A stretch of 10,528 bases of DNA from a virus (lineage: Duplodnaviria > Heunggongvirae > Uroviricota > Caudoviricetes). The notes below the pieces were generated by a model. It searched no databases. It was given only the letters and a program-made list of their open reading frames with translations, and had not been told where the DNA came from. Shown piece by piece: positions 1,462-9,785 of the stretch. The stretch covers positions 1-10,528 of the IMG/VR virus record IMGVR_UViG_2565956629_000002; one strand, 5' to 3'. A program made the position numbers and the translations under genes. Within the stretch, counting starts at the first letter, position 1; the number at the start of each line of letters is the position of its first letter.

Positions 1462-1656
1462 TTAATTATTCTGCTGATTTTCTTCCATCTCGGCTTCTGC
1501 TGCCAGTGATTCAATTTTATCTGTGAATATTGCTGACAGTGTTGCAAATTCAGCATCAGTGACAGCGGGAATTGGAACAAACCTGATCCCGCTGTGTGCA
1601 AGCATGTTTGCAGTTTCAAGGCATTTCCTTAAATCTGCTGGTGATGCCCTGTTCAT
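1462..1656 (-). CDS. Small hypothetical protein (64 aa) with acidic C-terminal tail, last gene of the cargo cassette
   Basis: ATG at 1656-1654 overlaps the methyltransferase stop (ATGA overlap). GGGAG lies 8 nt upstream. Protein MNRASPADLRKCLETANMLAHSG...AEAEMEENQQNN. The longer 104-aa track ORF (start 1776) would overlap the MTase out of frame and is disfavoured. Stop is 3 nt from the int stop. Confidence 0.4.
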   Translation of the reverse strand: MNRASPADLRKCLETANMLAHSGIRFVPIPAVTDAEFATLSAIFTDKIESLAAEAEMEENQQNN

Positions 1657-2300
1657 GCTGCACGCTCCCGCCCCTGGTTGTCTGTTGGTGACAGCGGAGC
1701 ATTGCTGAATGCATTTGTTAATCCGGCAATATACAACGCGTATCCAGGGTGTAGTTGCACTGCTGGGTCTTCGCACTGATTACCCCAAACATCGAAGCCA
1801 TGAGACGTTTGGCGGGCGAACAGTTCAATGCGAGAAACATCGCCTAACAATTGCACAAGTTTTTCACGAACGACATCTGGTTTTCTTGAATGCTCAAGCC
1901 GCGGTGCGGTAAATGACTGAACGATACCTGCATTAATGCGCGGAGGTAGTTTTCCCTTTACCGCAAACAGGCAATCTTCACTGTTGGCGCGAGTCATGTG
2001 TCCCATCCCCATAACCAGTTTATCTGGTTGTCGACTACCACATTTTATCCACGTGAAGCCCTTCATGGTCATCAGACGAAATCCCCAGGCTTCAACAACT
2101 TTTAGTGCTTCGAGTGGTTGTGTTGGCACCCACCACATGGCCAACAGACAGTTTTCATCGGCCAAATCCCACACAGGAAGGCGGCAGATATCCAGCACAC
2201 TCATAACCGGATATTTAAAACCGGCACCGCGATTACCATCTGCGGCTTTGTCCCGGTATACCCAGGGTGGATCTGCATAGATTAGCGTGTATTTTTTCAT
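1653..2300 (-). CDS. MT-A70 family N6-adenine DNA methyltransferase (215 aa)
   Basis: Start ATG at 2300 (internal Met of the track ORF) with GGGAG 7 nt upstream. MKKYTLIYADPPWVY carries the DPPW catalytic motif close to the N-terminus, as in MT-A70-type enzymes. ELFARQTSHGFDVWGNQ near the C-terminus is also typical. Start overlaps the stop of the upstream DndB-like gene (ATGA). Confidence 0.85.
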   Translation of the reverse strand: MKKYTLIYADPPWVYRDKAADGNRGAGFKYPVMSVLDICRLPVWDLADENCLLAMWWVPTQPLEALKVVEAWGFRLMTMKGFTWIKCGSRQPDKLVMGMGHMTRANSEDCLFAVKGKLPPRINAGIVQSFTAPRLEHSRKPDVVREKLVQLLGDVSRIELFARQTSHGFDVWGNQCEDPAVQLHPGYALYIAGLTNAFSNAPLSPTDNQGRERAA

Positions 2301-3364
2301 TGTTCTGCTCCCAGACTTCCTTTGGTAAAGGCTTGTATCAGCCTGTTTGCTGCCGCTTTCTGTGCTGCTACATTGGCAATAACTGATAGTTTTTCCTGGC
2401 TTGCTTTCGTGCAGATCCCAACCCAATTATCCATTAGGAAAAAATTCTCTCTTTCTGCGAAGTCAGTATTTGCACATAATGTTTCAATCATTGAAATTAT
2501 TTCTTTTATTGAGTGATTAACCATCATTTGCTGAACAGCATAGCCAAAAGCGTTAATCATCACTGCATGAAACTGGATATATTCTCTTTTGTATTCTGAT
2601 TGCTTTGTACCATGGCGAATTGCTTCTAGTTGTGTAAGACATAACCATGATTCCCATACTGACTCGATGTTACCAATTTCTAGTTTTTTCCCATTATGAA
2701 TACAAAATTTTGATGTTGAATCACTTAATGCTTTGAAACTCACCCACATGTTTGACTTTGACGGAACAACGTTGTGCTCGAAGTCAGTGACTTCTGCAAA
2801 AGTGTCATGTTGCGACAGGAAAGACACCATTTCTTGGGCAACATCGTTTCGTCCGTCATACGCCATATTAATTGCTGCAGATGGTTTTGAAACATTATTA
2901 TTAATGTCAGAAAAGAACTGCTGACGCGCCTTCAAAGGAAGGTTATGCGTAAGCATAAGAGGAATCATAATTGTTTCGCCATAATTACGGCAGAACTCAG
3001 CTAATCCTGCAGCACGATGCTGTCCATCAAATAATTTTATTTCTGCATCCATAGGAAATCTAGCTAAACCGACATTAGTATTTCCAATCTCATGGAACTC
3101 TATTTCTGAGTTACAATTTCCGACCAATGGTGGAACAATAAATGGTTCCTTTTTCTCGTAAGCGTTGACTAAATATTGATAAAACTTTTTTACCCTGGTT
3201 GGATTAATTTCACGTTGAGAACGTTCAAGGGTACTTCCCGTATTGTCGGTTGCCAATACTCTCGATAGTGCTCTTGCTGGTACTGTCATCATAAGTATTA
3301 CAGTGCTTCCCTGCGTTCCTCGTGATGCGGGAAATTCAAAGAAATAATCGCCTACCTTGCTCAT
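2297..3364 (-). CDS. DndB-like DGQHR-domain protein (ParB/Srx-fold, DNA-modification-associated family)
   Basis: Contains the name-giving motif LFDGQHRAAGL and an N-terminal YFFEFPASRGTQG segment as in DndB/DGQHR proteins. Start placed at ATG 3364 (MSKVGDYFF, AGG about 7 nt upstream). An in-frame ATG at 3400 would add 12 N/Q-rich residues and is the alternative. Gene is visibly more AT-rich than its neighbours. Confidence 0.82.
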   Translation of the reverse strand: MSKVGDYFFEFPASRGTQGSTVILMMTVPARALSRVLATDNTGSTLERSQREINPTRVKKFYQYLVNAYEKKEPFIVPPLVGNCNSEIEFHEIGNTNVGLARFPMDAEIKLFDGQHRAAGLAEFCRNYGETIMIPLMLTHNLPLKARQQFFSDINNNVSKPSAAINMAYDGRNDVAQEMVSFLSQHDTFAEVTDFEHNVVPSKSNMWVSFKALSDSTSKFCIHNGKKLEIGNIESVWESWLCLTQLEAIRHGTKQSEYKREYIQFHAVMINAFGYAVQQMMVNHSIKEIISMIETLCANTDFAERENFFLMDNWVGICTKASQEKLSVIANVAAQKAAANRLIQAFTKGSLGAEQ

Positions 3365-3392
3365 GATATTACCTTTTACATTATTGTTTTGA

Positions 3393-3692
3393 TTATTCAT
3401 AAACCACCCCGCAACATCCTATGCCGCTATAGTCGCCACGGCGAAGGCCGTTACCTTTTGTGATACATTGGTCCCTGCGAACCGCGATCCTTGCACGTTC
3501 AACATCACCAGAAGCAACATCCATACACTGAAGCCAAAGGTGAGCGGCAATGCGGAATTGCCCTTTTTTCTCTCTTTCAATCGCGCGTTTTTCGATCTCT
3601 ATCGCCGCAGGAGTAACGGCGACAATCTTTGACGGACTGCGCATTGAAACCTTATTCATGTGATATTTTTCAAGTCGGCTTAACTTTCTCAC
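3393..3692 (-). CDS. Hypothetical small protein, possible first gene of the cargo cassette
   Basis: Only long ORF on either strand in this 300-bp segment. GTG start at 3692 with GAGGG about 9 nt upstream; alternative internal ATG starts at 3659 and 3644. Stop TAA at 3393-3395 lies within the ATGAATAA context of the 3400 alternative start. No recognisable domain. Confidence 0.4.
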   Translation of the reverse strand: MRKLSRLEKYHMNKVSMRSPSKIVAVTPAAIEIEKRAIEREKKGQFRIAAHLWLQCMDVASGDVERARIAVRRDQCITKGNGLRRGDYSGIGCCGVVYE

Positions 3693-4099: not shown

Positions 4100-5017
4100 T
4101 TACATAGATGTTTCGTTTAATTCTTCCCGACGAACGCTGTAAACGTCGGTGGCTTTTGCCAGCAGTTCGTCATCATCTGAAAGTTTTTGTGCAATGTATT
4201 TGTAAGCCTTATCCAGTTCGGAGACAGTGCTGTAATTCATCGCTGCGCTGGTAAAGGCCATCAGCATTTCTTCTGGATCACGGCTATCCGCTTTACGCGT
4301 TTGCTCATCAGGCTTTTTCACTGTTTTAGCGTTGATCAGACTGTTCATGCTGGATGCTGTGCCGTGCTTTGCCTGACTTCTTGGAGTTACGTCACGTTCA
4401 ATAATGTCAGGTGAGTCGATATATTTACCTTCCATTTCCTCAGCTGTGGCTTGTTGACCAATCTCCGGCCATGCTTTACGTAATGCCTGTGCCTCTGCGC
4501 ATTTTGCCAACTGCGCATAAGGGCGCTTTTTCCACATGGCATTTGGTGCCGATGTGTCACGCCCCCCAGTTGCATAGTTCTCAATCCAGTATTCTTTGGC
4601 GCTAAACTCTACGATTTCCCCGCTTGCCATTCGCTTGCTGACGGTGTACTTACACCACTGAGGGAAGGTAACCTCCACGCCTGAAAGCGTTTGTGTTACA
4701 TCTGGACCGAACTCAGGTTCATTAGCGCCTGCGTAATCGCCGGAACGGTAGGCCTGAATGCGATAAAGTCCAATGCCAGGCATGACCACGTCGCGCCATT
4801 CATTCTTTCCACTCTTCGAGTCTTTAACACTCATTGGTACCAGGTGTACCGGCTTAAGAAGAGGATCGAGTTGACGCGCCCGGCAGTAATCGACTGCCAT
4901 CATTACCGATTCATCTTTTGCCCCAGGGTAAATACTGTTTTTCAGAGCGCTCCATGTAACTTCATCGATTCCCCGAATAGCCAACACATCATTGGTGATT
5001 GCAATTTCGTTGCTCAT
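4100..5017 (-). CDS. recT: RecT-family single-strand annealing recombinase
   Basis: Start ATG at 5017 (internal Met of the track ORF; AGGA 9 nt upstream) overlapping the exonuclease stop (ATGA). A GTG at 5044 is the alternative. SKSGKNEWRDVVMPGIGLYRIQAYRSGDYAG resembles the conserved RecT core as recalled from Rac RecT. Confidence 0.88.
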   Translation of the reverse strand: MSNEIAITNDVLAIRGIDEVTWSALKNSIYPGAKDESVMMAVDYCRARQLDPLLKPVHLVPMSVKDSKSGKNEWRDVVMPGIGLYRIQAYRSGDYAGANEPEFGPDVTQTLSGVEVTFPQWCKYTVSKRMASGEIVEFSAKEYWIENYATGGRDTSAPNAMWKKRPYAQLAKCAEAQALRKAWPEIGQQATAEEMEGKYIDSPDIIERDVTPRSQAKHGTASSMNSLINAKTVKKPDEQTRKADSRDPEEMLMAFTSAAMNYSTVSELDKAYKYIAQKLSDDDELLAKATDVYSVRREELNETSM

Positions 5018-5835
5018 ACGTACATATCCTGTTTGCGTGCCCACTCAGGGCGTTTAATAATTTCCACGCCGCCCCATTCATCGCTGATGCGGCATTCGTG
5101 ATAGGTATTCAGATCCCGGCGGAACAGAGCGTGCCCGGCATCGACATCCGGCGCATCCAGCCCGAACACGCGTACCGGATACCGACCACAATCAATGCTT
5201 TCGCTCACGGCAAGAAAGAAAAAACCATGCGGCTGACCAGTAATCCTCATTGCGCCTTCGCGGTACATTGCGTCCTGCACGTGGTAGCGGAATTCCTCGA
5301 TGTGACGTGCAAAACGGTCCATATCTGCAACCTTTTTCACGTCGACGATCACGTTGTGCTCGTTCAGCCATTTGTCTGGACGAATTCGGCACAACTCACC
5401 CGTCTCTTCATCGTTCCAGTACATTGATGCTTCGCAGTAACCAGGTGCTTCCAGCATCCAGCGTGCCGCCGGGTGAGCCATTGCGCTATCACGCATCAGC
5501 TCCAGTTTCCGCCACTGCTCGGCATCAAGTACCGTAATCCCCATATCCGCTACATCACGAAGAAATGCTTCTTCGTCAGCTTTACCTTGTTTCGTCCGAC
5601 GATCGAACTTCGGTGAAACAATGAAGCGTTTGTCGAATTCTCCAGGCTCCAGAAGCAGACAGTGCAATGCGGTTCCCATATCCAGTGCAGACTTTTTCTC
5701 TTCGTCTTCTGGTGCTGCCTGAACCCATTTAAGAAGCGCCGGATTCTTGGCAACCATGTCCAGTTGCGACTTACTCACGCCGTCACCGGCGTGGTAGTCT
5801 TCGTTGCTGATGTCGAAATAAATTCCCGGTTTCAT
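5014..5835 (-). CDS. RecE-like PD-(D/E)XK exonuclease (exodeoxyribonuclease VIII-like), partner of RecT
   Basis: 273-aa ORF immediately upstream of and translationally coupled to RecT. Sequence features recall the C-terminal nuclease domain of prophage RecE-type exonucleases. ATG at 5835 overlaps the upstream gene stop (ATGA). Confidence 0.8.
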   Translation of the reverse strand: MKPGIYFDISNEDYHAGDGVSKSQLDMVAKNPALLKWVQAAPEDEEKKSALDMGTALHCLLLEPGEFDKRFIVSPKFDRRTKQGKADEEAFLRDVADMGITVLDAEQWRKLELMRDSAMAHPAARWMLEAPGYCEASMYWNDEETGELCRIRPDKWLNEHNVIVDVKKVADMDRFARHIEEFRYHVQDAMYREGAMRITGQPHGFFFLAVSESIDCGRYPVRVFGLDAPDVDAGHALFRRDLNTYHECRISDEWGGVEIIKRPEWARKQDMYV

Positions 5836-6131
5836 GCCGCTTCCCTCTGCCCATCAAGCTGATCCGCCAGATCCCAGCGCGCTATAATTGCCATTGCCTC
5901 GCGCCGGTAGGAATCCATCAGTTCTTCGAACTCAGGGCTGTCTTTAGCAGCCTCCAGCACTTCCTGACGAACGCCTTTGCCTGTTACAACGTCGAAAGTT
6001 GAGGACAGTTGATGAAGTCGGATGCTCTCAATCAGTTCAACTTGTCGGTCATATAGCTGTTCTGACAGGCGGTAGTCCTTGTCGAATGCCAGCATGATTT
6101 TTTGAAGATTTTTCTGCTGATTAACGTTCAT
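5832..6131 (-). CDS. Hypothetical early-left-operon protein (99 aa)
   Basis: Start ATG at 6131 with strong GGAGG 7 nt upstream (an ATG at 6146 is less likely). Stop overlaps the exonuclease start. No recognised domain; occupies a position analogous to gam/abc-type genes in lambdoid phages. Confidence 0.7.
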   Translation of the reverse strand: MNVNQQKNLQKIMLAFDKDYRLSEQLYDRQVELIESIRLHQLSSTFDVVTGKGVRQEVLEAAKDSPEFEELMDSYRREAMAIIARWDLADQLDGQREAA

Positions 6132-6133
6132 TA

Positions 6134-6286
6134 TCAGCCCTCCCATATCTCGTTATCGTTGGCCACATCGCGAGCTTCTTTGCTGACGAAAGCCCACTTA
6201 ATGCCTTCCTGTAAGGTGCGGAACTTCCAGCTCATGAATCCGCATGCAGTAACGCAGTACCAACCGTTGATGATTTTCCACTGCAT
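6134..6286 (-). CDS. Small W/C-rich hypothetical protein (50 aa), first gene after the pL-like promoter
   Basis: Not in the supplied track (under 60 aa). ATG at 6286 with GAGGT 8 nt upstream. Hand translation: MQWKIINGWYCVTACGFMSWKFRTLQEGIKWAFVSKEARDVANDNEIWEG. Stop TGA at 6134-6136 is followed after 2 nt by the next gene's ATG. Confidence 0.5.
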   Translation of the reverse strand: MQWKIINGWYCVTACGFMSWKFRTLQEGIKWAFVSKEARDVANDNEIWEG

Positions 6287-6305
6287 AACTTGTTACCTCG
6301 GTCTG

Positions 6306-6382
6306 TTACCGTTGAGGTAATAATTATGCGTATTTGGTTTGATGTCAATAGATATGAGTTAAAAAAATTACCCATAAGGTAA
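6306..6382. promoter_or_regulatory. OL-like operator pair: two perfect TTACC-N5-GGTAA palindromes flanking the pL-like promoter
   Basis: TTACCgttgaGGTAA (6306-6320) and TTACCcataaGGTAA (6368-6382), 62 bp centre to centre. Confidence 0.6.
6320..6348 (-). promoter_or_regulatory. pL-like early leftward promoter
   Basis: On the minus strand: TTGACA (complement of 6343-6348), 17-nt spacer, AATTAT abutting the 6306-6320 operator. The second operator lies 19 bp upstream of the -35. Confidence 0.45.
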
Positions 6383-6393
6383 TCTTGTTGGCA

Positions 6394-6418
6394 ATAAAAA
6401 AGCCGCCATGAGGCGGCT
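6394..6418 (-). terminator. Rho-independent terminator downstream of the repressor gene
   Basis: Stem AGCCGCC (6401-6407), loop ATGA, stem GGCGGCT (6412-6418). On the minus strand the hairpin is followed by TTTTTTAT (plus-strand A-tract 6394-6400). Confidence 0.65.
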
Positions 6419-6439
6419 TACTTACTGAAAACTATAGTT

Positions 6440-7024
6440 TTATTGTTTGCTTCTTTCGTTCTGGCTGATGACAAATTCAATGTAACTTTCGATCTTTGCC
6501 TTCTCTGTTTCGGGTAACAATGCGTAGCGCGAGCGGTCATAGTTGATAGTCGCAGGGTCGTGCGGGTGAATCAGTAATTCATAGCCGTGACGCCCGAATG
6601 CGGATGCAACATTCTCCAGGGTGGAAATGGAAACGCTGACTTCATTGTTTAACAGGCGGCTGATTGTCACCTGGGCGACGCCGGATGCGCGGTGTAGTTT
6701 TCCCTGCGTTGAAAGGTCGCGGCTTTCGCTCATCCAGCGTTCCAGGTTGTGAGCCGCCAGCTGACCAATGTCGCTTGGGCCGACAGGCTGAAACCCCTCC
6801 TGAGAAAGCGAGCGATCGATATCAAGCCAGTTACGGGGTTTATTGGCGGCAGCTTCAATTTTTCGCGCAACCTGGTCGCCGATAACCTTCTTGCCAAGAG
6901 CCCAGCGGTTTACCAGATTTGCCTGAGTTCCAAGTTTTTCTGCCATCCGCGTCTGAACACCATTGAATTCACGGTCGATCAAGTCGTTGAGATTTTGCCT
7001 GCGGACGTCCTGGATACTTTTCAT
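6440..7024 (-). CDS. Prophage repressor-like protein with two HTH domains and no S24 peptidase domain
   Basis: 194 aa, transcribed divergently from the cro-like gene across an operator-rich region. Two HTH-like segments (QTRMAEKLGTQANLVNRWALGKK and LHRASGVAQVTISRLLNNEVSVS). No LexA-type Ala-Gly cleavage site or Ser/Lys peptidase module recognisable. Confidence 0.8.
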   Translation of the reverse strand: MKSIQDVRRQNLNDLIDREFNGVQTRMAEKLGTQANLVNRWALGKKVIGDQVARKIEAAANKPRNWLDIDRSLSQEGFQPVGPSDIGQLAAHNLERWMSESRDLSTQGKLHRASGVAQVTISRLLNNEVSVSISTLENVASAFGRHGYELLIHPHDPATINYDRSRYALLPETEKAKIESYIEFVISQNERSKQ

Positions 7025-7079: not shown

Positions 7080-7142
7080 TTACCCAACAGGTAAATGCAC
7101 CTCATAGGTAACTATCCTTGATTTTTGTTACCTTATGGGTGA
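7080..7142. promoter_or_regulatory. OR-like operator cluster between the repressor and cro-like genes
   Basis: TTACCcaacaGGTAA (7080-7094, perfect), gcACCtcataGGTAA (7097-7111, degenerate), TTACCttatgGGTgA (7128-7142, one mismatch). Confidence 0.6.
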
Positions 7143-7409: not shown

Positions 7410-7431
7410 TATCCAGCTACAACCCTCTGTA

Positions 7432-7453
7432 GACCGCCACCCGGCGGTCTTTT
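7432..7453 (+). terminator. tR1-like rho-independent terminator after the cro-like gene
   Basis: Stem GACCGCC (7432-7438), loop ACCC, stem GGCGGTC (7443-7449), then TTTT (short T-tract). Confidence 0.5.
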
Positions 7454-7557
7454 CATATCTATTCGTACCTCAAAGGTAATAAAAAACCAAATCTGGTTGA
7501 TCAAATTTTCCAATTGTGCAAAATATCCAATATCAATAACAAAAAGAGGCGGAAAAA

Positions 7558-9360: not shown

Positions 9361-9437
9361 TTACCTGTGAGGTAATAAAATATTCTAAACTCTATTGATT
9401 TCGTGTCTTATGTGGTTTTTAATTACCTCAGGGGTAA
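9361..9437. promoter_or_regulatory. Third operator pair (O3) flanking a promoter downstream of the replication genes
   Basis: TTACCtgtgaGGTAA (9361-9375) and TTACCtcaggGGTAA (9423-9437), both perfect, 62 bp centre to centre: the same spacing as the OL pair. Confidence 0.55.
9395..9423 (+). promoter_or_regulatory. Candidate repressor-controlled rightward promoter (P3)
   Basis: TTGATT (9395-9400), 17-nt spacer, TTTAAT (9418-9423) abutting the downstream operator. The upstream operator ends 19 bp before the -35, the same geometry as the pL-like promoter. Confidence 0.45.
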
Positions 9438-9440
9438 ATT

Positions 9441-9785
9441 ATGAGAAAACAGATACAGGCTCTTGGTCGACTCAAAACAGGCCAGATGAACAAAACAGAA
9501 TCTGCGTATTGCCAGCACCTTGAGCTGCGTAAACGTGCAGGGGAAATCGCCTGGTATCGATTTGAGGGTATCAAGCTGCGATTAGCTGACAACACGTTCT
9601 ATACGCCCGATTTTGCTGTGATGCTCGCCACCGGCGAGATGGAACTGCACGAAGTGAAAGGTTTCTGGACCGACGACGCCAGGGTGAAAACCAAAGTCGC
9701 CGCAGATCAGTATCCGTTCCGAATCATCGGGGTAACGGTTAAACCAAAGAAAGCAGGTGGTGGCTGGAACATCGAAGAGTTCTGA
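9441..9785 (+). CDS. DUF1064-like phage protein (possible PD-(D/E)XK-type nuclease fold)
   Basis: 114-aa ORF with GGGG about 8 nt upstream. YTPDFAV...EMELHEVKG resembles a D...E.K nuclease-type motif. Family name is from recollection, not a search. Confidence 0.75.
   Translation: MRKQIQALGRLKTGQMNKTESAYCQHLELRKRAGEIAWYRFEGIKLRLADNTFYTPDFAVMLATGEMELHEVKGFWTDDARVKTKVAADQYPFRIIGVTVKPKKAGGGWNIEEF

Follow-up and report, generated by a model that had tools for sequence, protein, structure and literature searches.

Lambda Kil, Rac KilR, Qin DicB and T7 gp0.4 are division inhibitors, and these Kil-type proteins are not homologous to one another. Phage P1 makes a small antirepressor, Coi, from a repressor-controlled promoter that adjoins the repressor gene, and T7 Ocr is an anti-restriction protein expressed from a first-expressed gene. 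The closest described counterparts of the gene studied here are phiV10 gp39 and epsilon15 gp37, which occupy the same slot, between the repressor and gp36, and are all labelled 'hypothetical protein'. Here, we analyze this gene, which we call orf50, in a 10,528-nucleotide stretch of DNA from a Caudoviricetes virus record (the window). We find that the window derives from a Uetakevirus (epsilon15/phiV10-like) prophage in which orf50 is the leading cistron of the early-left (pL-type) operon, itself under repressor control, and we discuss what its product could do.

A catalogued gene at the head of the early-left operon

The orf50 reading frame extends from an ATG to a TGA codon on the minus strand (6134..6286) and encodes 50 aa, MQWKIINGWYCVTACGFMSWKFRTLQEGIKWAFVSKEARDVANDNEIWEG, of which five are Trp and two are Cys. 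The protein is 100% identical to phiV10 gp39 (YP_512294.1) and to TL-2011b gp09, and 79% identical to its epsilon15 ortholog, gp37 (NP_848245.1). Epsilon15 gp37 and the related proteins of Salmonella and Enterobacter phages are 79–85% identical to orf50; for further homologs in Klebsiella and Enterobacter phages, identities are 70–84%, counted over the matched part only. The match of orf50 to PHROG 898 is full length (E = 1.9e-38, residues 1–50 on profile positions 1–50 of 50), all of the 34 aligned relatives match the same family, and the protein has a RefSeq E. coli entry (WP_001198620.1). orf50 is an already catalogued hypothetical gene, known as phiV10 gp39, epsilon15 gp37 and PHROG 898, and the word 'unannotated' in the earlier note applies only to a track with a 60-aa threshold, as annotations exist in phiV10, TL-2011b, RefSeq and PHROG. 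Among 5,426 complete E. coli genomes, 558 contain its DNA, in almost every case under the label 'hypothetical protein', and the protein occurs on at least 1000 contigs.

The family is small and taxonomically compact. Three word-indexed searches and one exhaustive HMMER profile search, covering 1.84 billion representatives, returned only ~60 clusters, all of them proteins of ~46–54 aa or frameshifted variants, and the exhaustive profile search together with two further profile iterations found nothing beyond the orf50 family. Named records, genome matches and phage matches all belong to prophages or phages of Enterobacterales, with Escherichia, Salmonella, Klebsiella, Enterobacter, Citrobacter, Kluyvera, Raoultella, Scandinavium, Hafnia, Serratia, Buttiauxella and Erwinia as the genera represented. 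Outside the PHROG 898 family, we found no homologs in Pfam (no family with E ≤ 0.01), NCBIfam, PADLOC or PDB sequences. A literature search found no paper mentioning the orf50 accessions or its PHROG; the paper on phage ZX5 deals with the repressor, antirepressor and integrase only.

Transcription of orf50 is expected to start at a pL-type sigma70 promoter, TTGACA-17-AATTAT (6348..6320, minus strand), which matches the consensus at 10 of 12 positions, lies 33 nt 5' of the orf50 ATG and is the top-scoring sigma70-like promoter in the entire window. Two operators, both perfect TTACC-N5-GGTAA palindromes, flank this promoter: TTACCGTTGAGGTAA (6306..6320) abuts the −10 element and spans the expected transcription start, and TTACCCATAAGGTAA (6368..6382) lies upstream of the −35 element. 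The same palindrome occurs at eight sites in the window, against 0.23 expected, including two at the divergent promoter (7080–7094 and 7128–7142), and the equivalent interval of epsilon15 contains three annotated repressor-binding sites. Just upstream of pL, a strong intrinsic terminator (6400..6419, minus strand), which corresponds to an annotated terminator in phiV10, ends the repressor transcript. The repressor itself, a 194-aa Rep-type protein with two HTH domains, is encoded at 6440..7024 on the minus strand. The order Rep, terminator, pL, orf50 holds in 20/20 loci examined, and in all 20 orf50 is the first ORF 150–550 nt 3' of a Rep homolog (41–78% identity) on the same strand. Because orf50 begins 33 nt 3' of the −10 element of an operator-flanked promoter, we expect it to be silent in the lysogen and to yield the earliest protein product after infection or derepression. 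The earlier note had placed the ORF directly downstream of a pL-like promoter, which this arrangement bears out, and had likened its position to the kil/cIII region of lambdoid phages, which it does not: orf50 comes first after pL, in the slot held by N in lambda, and is not mid-operon.

The palindrome also recurs elsewhere in the window. Two more perfect TTACC-N5-GGTAA copies (9361–9375 and 9423–9437) lie just upstream of a DUF1064 gene (9441..9785), a pairing that suggests a third repressor-controlled promoter at that position. A copy with one mismatch (7465–7479) directly follows the intrinsic terminator at 7431–7450, which itself follows the cro-like gene.

Translation signals are well formed at both ends of orf50. 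A Shine-Dalgarno element, GAGGT (6295..6299, minus strand), lies 9 nt 5' of the ATG; GAGGT is kept in relatives, where the spacing is 6–9 nt. At the 3' end, just 2 nt separate the stop codon (6136–6134) from the start codon (ATG, 6131) of the following gene, which has its Shine-Dalgarno sequence, GGGAGGG, within orf50 codons 48–50, such that the tail codons of one gene double as the ribosome-binding site of the next. The ORF, its good ribosome-binding site and its abutment on the following gene had all been described in the earlier note and are confirmed. Across 20 loci, the junction is always tight (an overlap of 4 nt or a gap of a few bases, never more than 4 nt), and the gene that follows varies, being a 99-aa gp36-like gene, an unknown gene of ~330 aa, a gene for a 94-aa protein or a gene for a RecE-type exonuclease of 492–550 aa. 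orf50 is translationally coupled to whichever gene comes next.

Coding status and predicted properties of the protein

An ORF of 50 codons is not beyond chance in a 10.5-kb window that holds 125 ORFs of at least 30 aa, and we accept orf50 as a real gene because of its conservation, not its length. Conservation of the reading frame in related prophages, which the earlier note had proposed as a check, is observed: the ORF is uninterrupted in 36 phage records and in 20/20 related loci examined. Aligned codons from eight phages show nearly saturated synonymous change (pS 0.5–0.76) and almost no amino-acid change in codons 1–25 (pN 0.02–0.07, dN/dS 0.01–0.19); the C-terminal half is less constrained and occurs as two tail types. 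Substitutions of this kind indicate purifying selection on the encoded protein. The 661 bases around orf50 are 96–97% identical to phiV10, TL-2011b, ZX5 and other E. coli podophages. In Salmonella phages, DNA conservation is confined to the orf50 ORF and thus reflects constraint at the protein level. In some homologs (P0001, P0007, P0040, P0012 and P0018), the C-terminal tail is frameshifted or extended, or nine residues are duplicated internally, while the N-terminal 25 residues are intact.

These data bear on the notion that orf50 is not a functional protein at all, the locus acting instead through an antisense ORF of 72 aa, through an RNA element or as a leader ORF in which translation alone matters. 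Tight coupling to the next cistron would suit a leader ORF, and the record of phage Tyrion (NC_031077.1, locus L004) annotates the opposite strand. Nevertheless, the antisense ORF (6102..6320, plus strand) contains stops in 6 of the 18 sequences compared, whereas the sense frame is open in all of them, and we rule out the antisense ORF as a real feature on this basis. Its third codon positions fall on those of orf50, and for this reason periodicity by itself does not tell the two frames apart. An RNA element is likewise ruled out, as no Rfam family matches the orf50 region and its RNA folding energy is unremarkable (z = −0.55). Strong selection on amino acids, with synonymous sites saturated, also argues against this family of explanations, and we consider them highly improbable. 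In the Tyrion record, the antisense gene is BI095_gp39 (2905–3117, minus strand) and the orf50 homolog (3001–3150, plus strand) is omitted; given the stops in other sequences, this annotation is probably wrong.

Residues G8 and T13 are invariant in the orf50 family, and W3, V12, G16, S19, K21, F22, W31, F33 and A38 are nearly invariant. The two cysteines behave differently: in distant members, C11 is replaced by L, F, Y, H or R and C15 by S. As neither is conserved, a zinc or other metal site is unlikely, and we dropped a zinc or Cys motif from consideration. The description 'Trp/Cys-rich', given in the earlier note, therefore stands for the five Trp and two Cys residues of this protein, but Cys-richness is not a property of the family. 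The N-terminal hydrophobic stretch has a summed Hessa insertion energy of +4 to +11 kcal/mol (best 17–19-residue window) and a mean Kyte-Doolittle hydropathy of about 0.7, and D, E, H or R substitutions occur within it among relatives. These hydrophobicity values and charged substitutions rule out a transmembrane peptide. We predict that the product is a 5.9-kDa soluble cytoplasmic mini-protein (pI 6.1) that lacks a transmembrane segment, conserved metal ligands and a catalytic motif.

With an alignment of 34 diverse sequences, AlphaFold predicts strands at residues 2–6, 9–14 and 18–22 and a helix at residues 25–48 (pLDDT 69), and an N/D/E-G dipeptide of the kind typical of a tight hairpin turn is found at positions 7–8. 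Three of the five models from this alignment were poor, with scores of 52–56, and a model computed from a shallow alignment, a helical hairpin with a pLDDT of 55, was discarded as low-confidence. A fold in which three short beta-strands pack on one C-terminal helix is moderately supported by this modeling. Foldseek searches with the better model against the PDB and BFVD gave no match with E below 0.5. The earlier note held that function could not be assigned from sequence, and our homology, profile and Foldseek searches, none of which gave an assignment, agree with it.

Operon context and candidate functions

Following orf50, the operon contains a gp36-like gene for a 99-aa protein (5832..6131, minus strand; PHROG 856), which starts 2 nt after the orf50 stop, then genes for a PD-(D/E)XK RecE-like exonuclease (5014..5835, minus strand) and a RecT-family annealing protein (4100..5044, minus strand), and then genes for an AlpA-type excisionase and PerC. 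The exonuclease and RecT genes are separate ORFs here, with an overlap of 31 nt; the annotation of phiV10 has one RecE-RecT fusion CDS of 1761 nt at this point and that of TL-2011b two genes. The early-left operon of the window also carries a DndB-like gene (2297..3400, minus strand; Pfam PF14072, 3.5e-46; PADLOC DndB, 2.3e-37) that adjoins a gene for an MT-A70-type methyltransferase (1653..2426, minus strand). The DndB-like gene had no megablast match among 50,697 phage records, and phiV10, TL-2011b and the E. coli 4/1-1 prophage all lack it. Such a distribution suggests that the gene was inserted as cargo.

Pairwise identities of orf50 correlate with those of AlpA (rho 0.81), gp36 (rho 0.63) and Exo (rho 0.61), but not with those of the adjacent Rep (rho −0.12). 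That orf50 tracks AlpA, gp36 and Exo but not Rep points to a recombination boundary at pL and, as judged from these patterns of divergence, orf50 is part of the early-left backbone, not of the immunity cassette. There are two implications for a binding partner. First, the lack of co-variation makes a Rep-specific partner unlikely; because orf50 does not follow the Rep allele, its partner would probably be a conserved protein, either of the host or of the phage backbone. Second, the correlation with AlpA, gp36 and Exo may result merely from the shared descent of the operon backbone, which leaves room for a phage-encoded partner.

We favor a reading, to which we give a probability of roughly 0.45, in which orf50 is an early host-directed binding protein with a conserved host partner and serves as an accessory for host takeover or against host defense. 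A host-targeting product, at which the earlier note hinted, is thus plausible. The tiny size of the protein, its nearly invariant aromatic sheet and its lack of catalytic features make partner binding the most likely activity. In this model, orf50 would be made first from pL on infection or derepression and would act stoichiometrically: its aromatic N-terminal sheet, which hardly varies, would contact a conserved partner, with W3, G8, W9/Y10, V12, T13, G16, S19, K21 and F22 as putative binding residues. The partner would most likely be a host protein common to Enterobacterales, and orf50 would act as an early host-takeover or anti-host-defense accessory rather than as a switch component matched to a repressor allele. 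Retention throughout the lineage, always at the head of the operon, would be as compatible with a core regulatory role as with a host-directed accessory role.

More broadly, orf50 is an ordinary conserved hypothetical gene that is already in public annotation. About one-tenth of complete E. coli genomes carry it, as do all of the epsilon15/phiV10-like phages examined. Identifying its partner would help to complete the picture of early events in phages that are used for the detection and typing of O157 and Salmonella, and orf50 could join the small phage proteins that modulate a host machine.

The operon context also suggests a role in recombination, with orf50 as a partner or modulator of the exonuclease/RecT pair or as an anti-RecBCD factor, in the manner of P22 Arf or Abc1/Abc2. 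orf50 is always in the same operon as a recombination exonuclease and within ~1.5 kb of it, directly overlaps a large RecE-type gene at two loci (L015 and L105), and shows the correlation in divergence with gp36 and Exo (rho ~0.6). Yet orf50 is unchanged while the recombinase differs (that of epsilon15 is annotated as lambda-Exo-like, and others are RecE-type enzymes), the slot beside the exonuclease is held by gp36 or a Gam-like protein and not by orf50, and, with its pI of 6.1, the protein is not acidic, unlike a DNA mimic. We regard a recombination accessory as rather unlikely.

The slot between orf50 and the exonuclease is itself variable. It holds the unknown ~330-aa gene at some loci (among them L009, 5150–6196), and at a Hafnia-type locus (L013, 4240–4524) a 94-aa protein with a precomputed Pfam GamL label takes the place of gp36. 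By analogy, this shared slot hints that gp36 may be a positional counterpart of an anti-RecBCD protein; no sequence similarity was found between gp36 and the GamL-labeled 94-aa protein.

Comparison with known early-left proteins

Profile comparisons of orf50 with lambda Kil, CIII, N, Ral, Ea10, Gam, orf28, orf60a and orf63 and with Rac KilR, YdaE, YdaF, YdaG, RacC, RcbA and RalR were all insignificant. RalR scored best of these 16 lambda and Rac proteins, and against a 67-sequence Lar alignment the orf50 profile (A5) scored 18.5, with column-shuffled queries scoring 9.5 ± 2.1 and 1 of 200 shuffles reaching the score. One could therefore picture orf50 as a metal-free descendant of a Lar/RalR-type zinc ribbon (PF14354) that works as a first-expressed anti-restriction or anti-nuclease factor, a role to which a first-expressed gene is suited, as T7 Ocr illustrates. 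In such an alignment, orf50 residues 7–30 pair weakly with a strand, the second Cys knuckle (Cys-Gly) and the S/T-x-x-E-A-I helix of Lar. Sub-threshold matches to PF24184 (Phage_zn_bind_5) in 7 of 34 family members (best E-value 0.0011) point the same way, although the window protein gives no match and the best score, 15.1 bits among 10 members scanned one by one, compares with a curated cut-off of 27 bits. Lar proteins match PF14354 and not PF24184, however, which means that neither of these weak signals strengthens the other. Moreover, orf50 lacks the first CPFC knuckle, the WNxR motif and conserved cysteines and has no Pfam Lar match, and the hhalign probability is 9%, which is not significant after ~18 family comparisons. 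We keep the Lar relationship as a lead only and consider descent from such a ribbon improbable.

Rac YdaF (DUF1391), at ~51 aa and in an early operon beside racR, resembles orf50 in size and in its location near a repressor. Both proteins have the motif F-[KR]-T-x-x-[GE]-x-x-x-W after a D/N-G hairpin. Kinship was rejected, as the likeness is limited to this 10-residue motif, with an hhalign probability of 0.05–0.3%, which is not significant; orf50 has no Pfam match to PF07151, the family that YdaF itself matches at 1.9e-28. Weak DUF2985 matches, seen in 10 of 34 family members and all under the cut-off, were taken as compositional.

As the first cistron from pL beside the immunity region, orf50 holds the position of lambda N, is universally kept and is never displaced from this slot; in addition, an intrinsic terminator (7431–7450) follows the cro-like gene. 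These features would suit a regulator of the phage programme, whether an elongation or antitermination factor in the N position that lacks an arginine-rich motif, a CIII-like protease inhibitor or a Coi-like antirepressor providing feed-forward commitment to lysis. By contrast with N, orf50 has no N-terminal arginine-rich motif (it has two Arg, neither of them N-terminal, and four Lys), is predicted to be folded rather than disordered, and follows a leader of ~27 nt that is filled by the operator and the Shine-Dalgarno element and is too short for a nut site (boxA/boxB). No terminators are predicted inside the left operon, and orf50 shows no similarity to N (hhalign probability 0.3%) or to CIII (0.7%). 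The likeness to P1 Coi, also a small protein from a repressor-controlled promoter beside the repressor gene, is by description only, and the uncorrelated divergence of orf50 and the neighboring Rep (rho −0.12) argues against an allele-specific antirepressor. Furthermore, an Ant antirepressor has already been described for this epsilon15/phiV10-type phage group (PMC9782041). Taken as a whole, a regulatory role is as improbable as descent from Lar. Within it, we rate as very improbable a version in which orf50 is a folded, non-arginine-rich antiterminator in the N position that binds RNA polymerase or a termination factor, passes the terminator at 7431–7450 and times the delayed-early genes. If true, this would add a protein antiterminator that is related to none of N, Q and Xp10 p7.

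The likeness to Kil leads to a further alternative, in which orf50 blocks assembly of the FtsZ ring or another divisome step during early lytic growth. Like the FtsZ inhibitors lambda Kil (47 aa) and Rac KilR, orf50 is small and belongs to a repressor-controlled early-left operon. It shows no similarity to either protein (hmmsearch scores below 0 bits, hhalign probabilities of 0.2–0.3%), although, because Kil-type inhibitors are mutually non-homologous, missing similarity is compatible with such a role. Setting and distribution also speak against it, and we judge a Kil-like function unlikely and prefer the early host-directed binding protein. Lambda Kil is encoded mid-operon, after N, ral, ea10 and cIII, and Kil-type genes are dispensable and patchy in occurrence, whereas orf50 is the first cistron of its operon and is universal in its lineage, kept in every member examined and always in first place.
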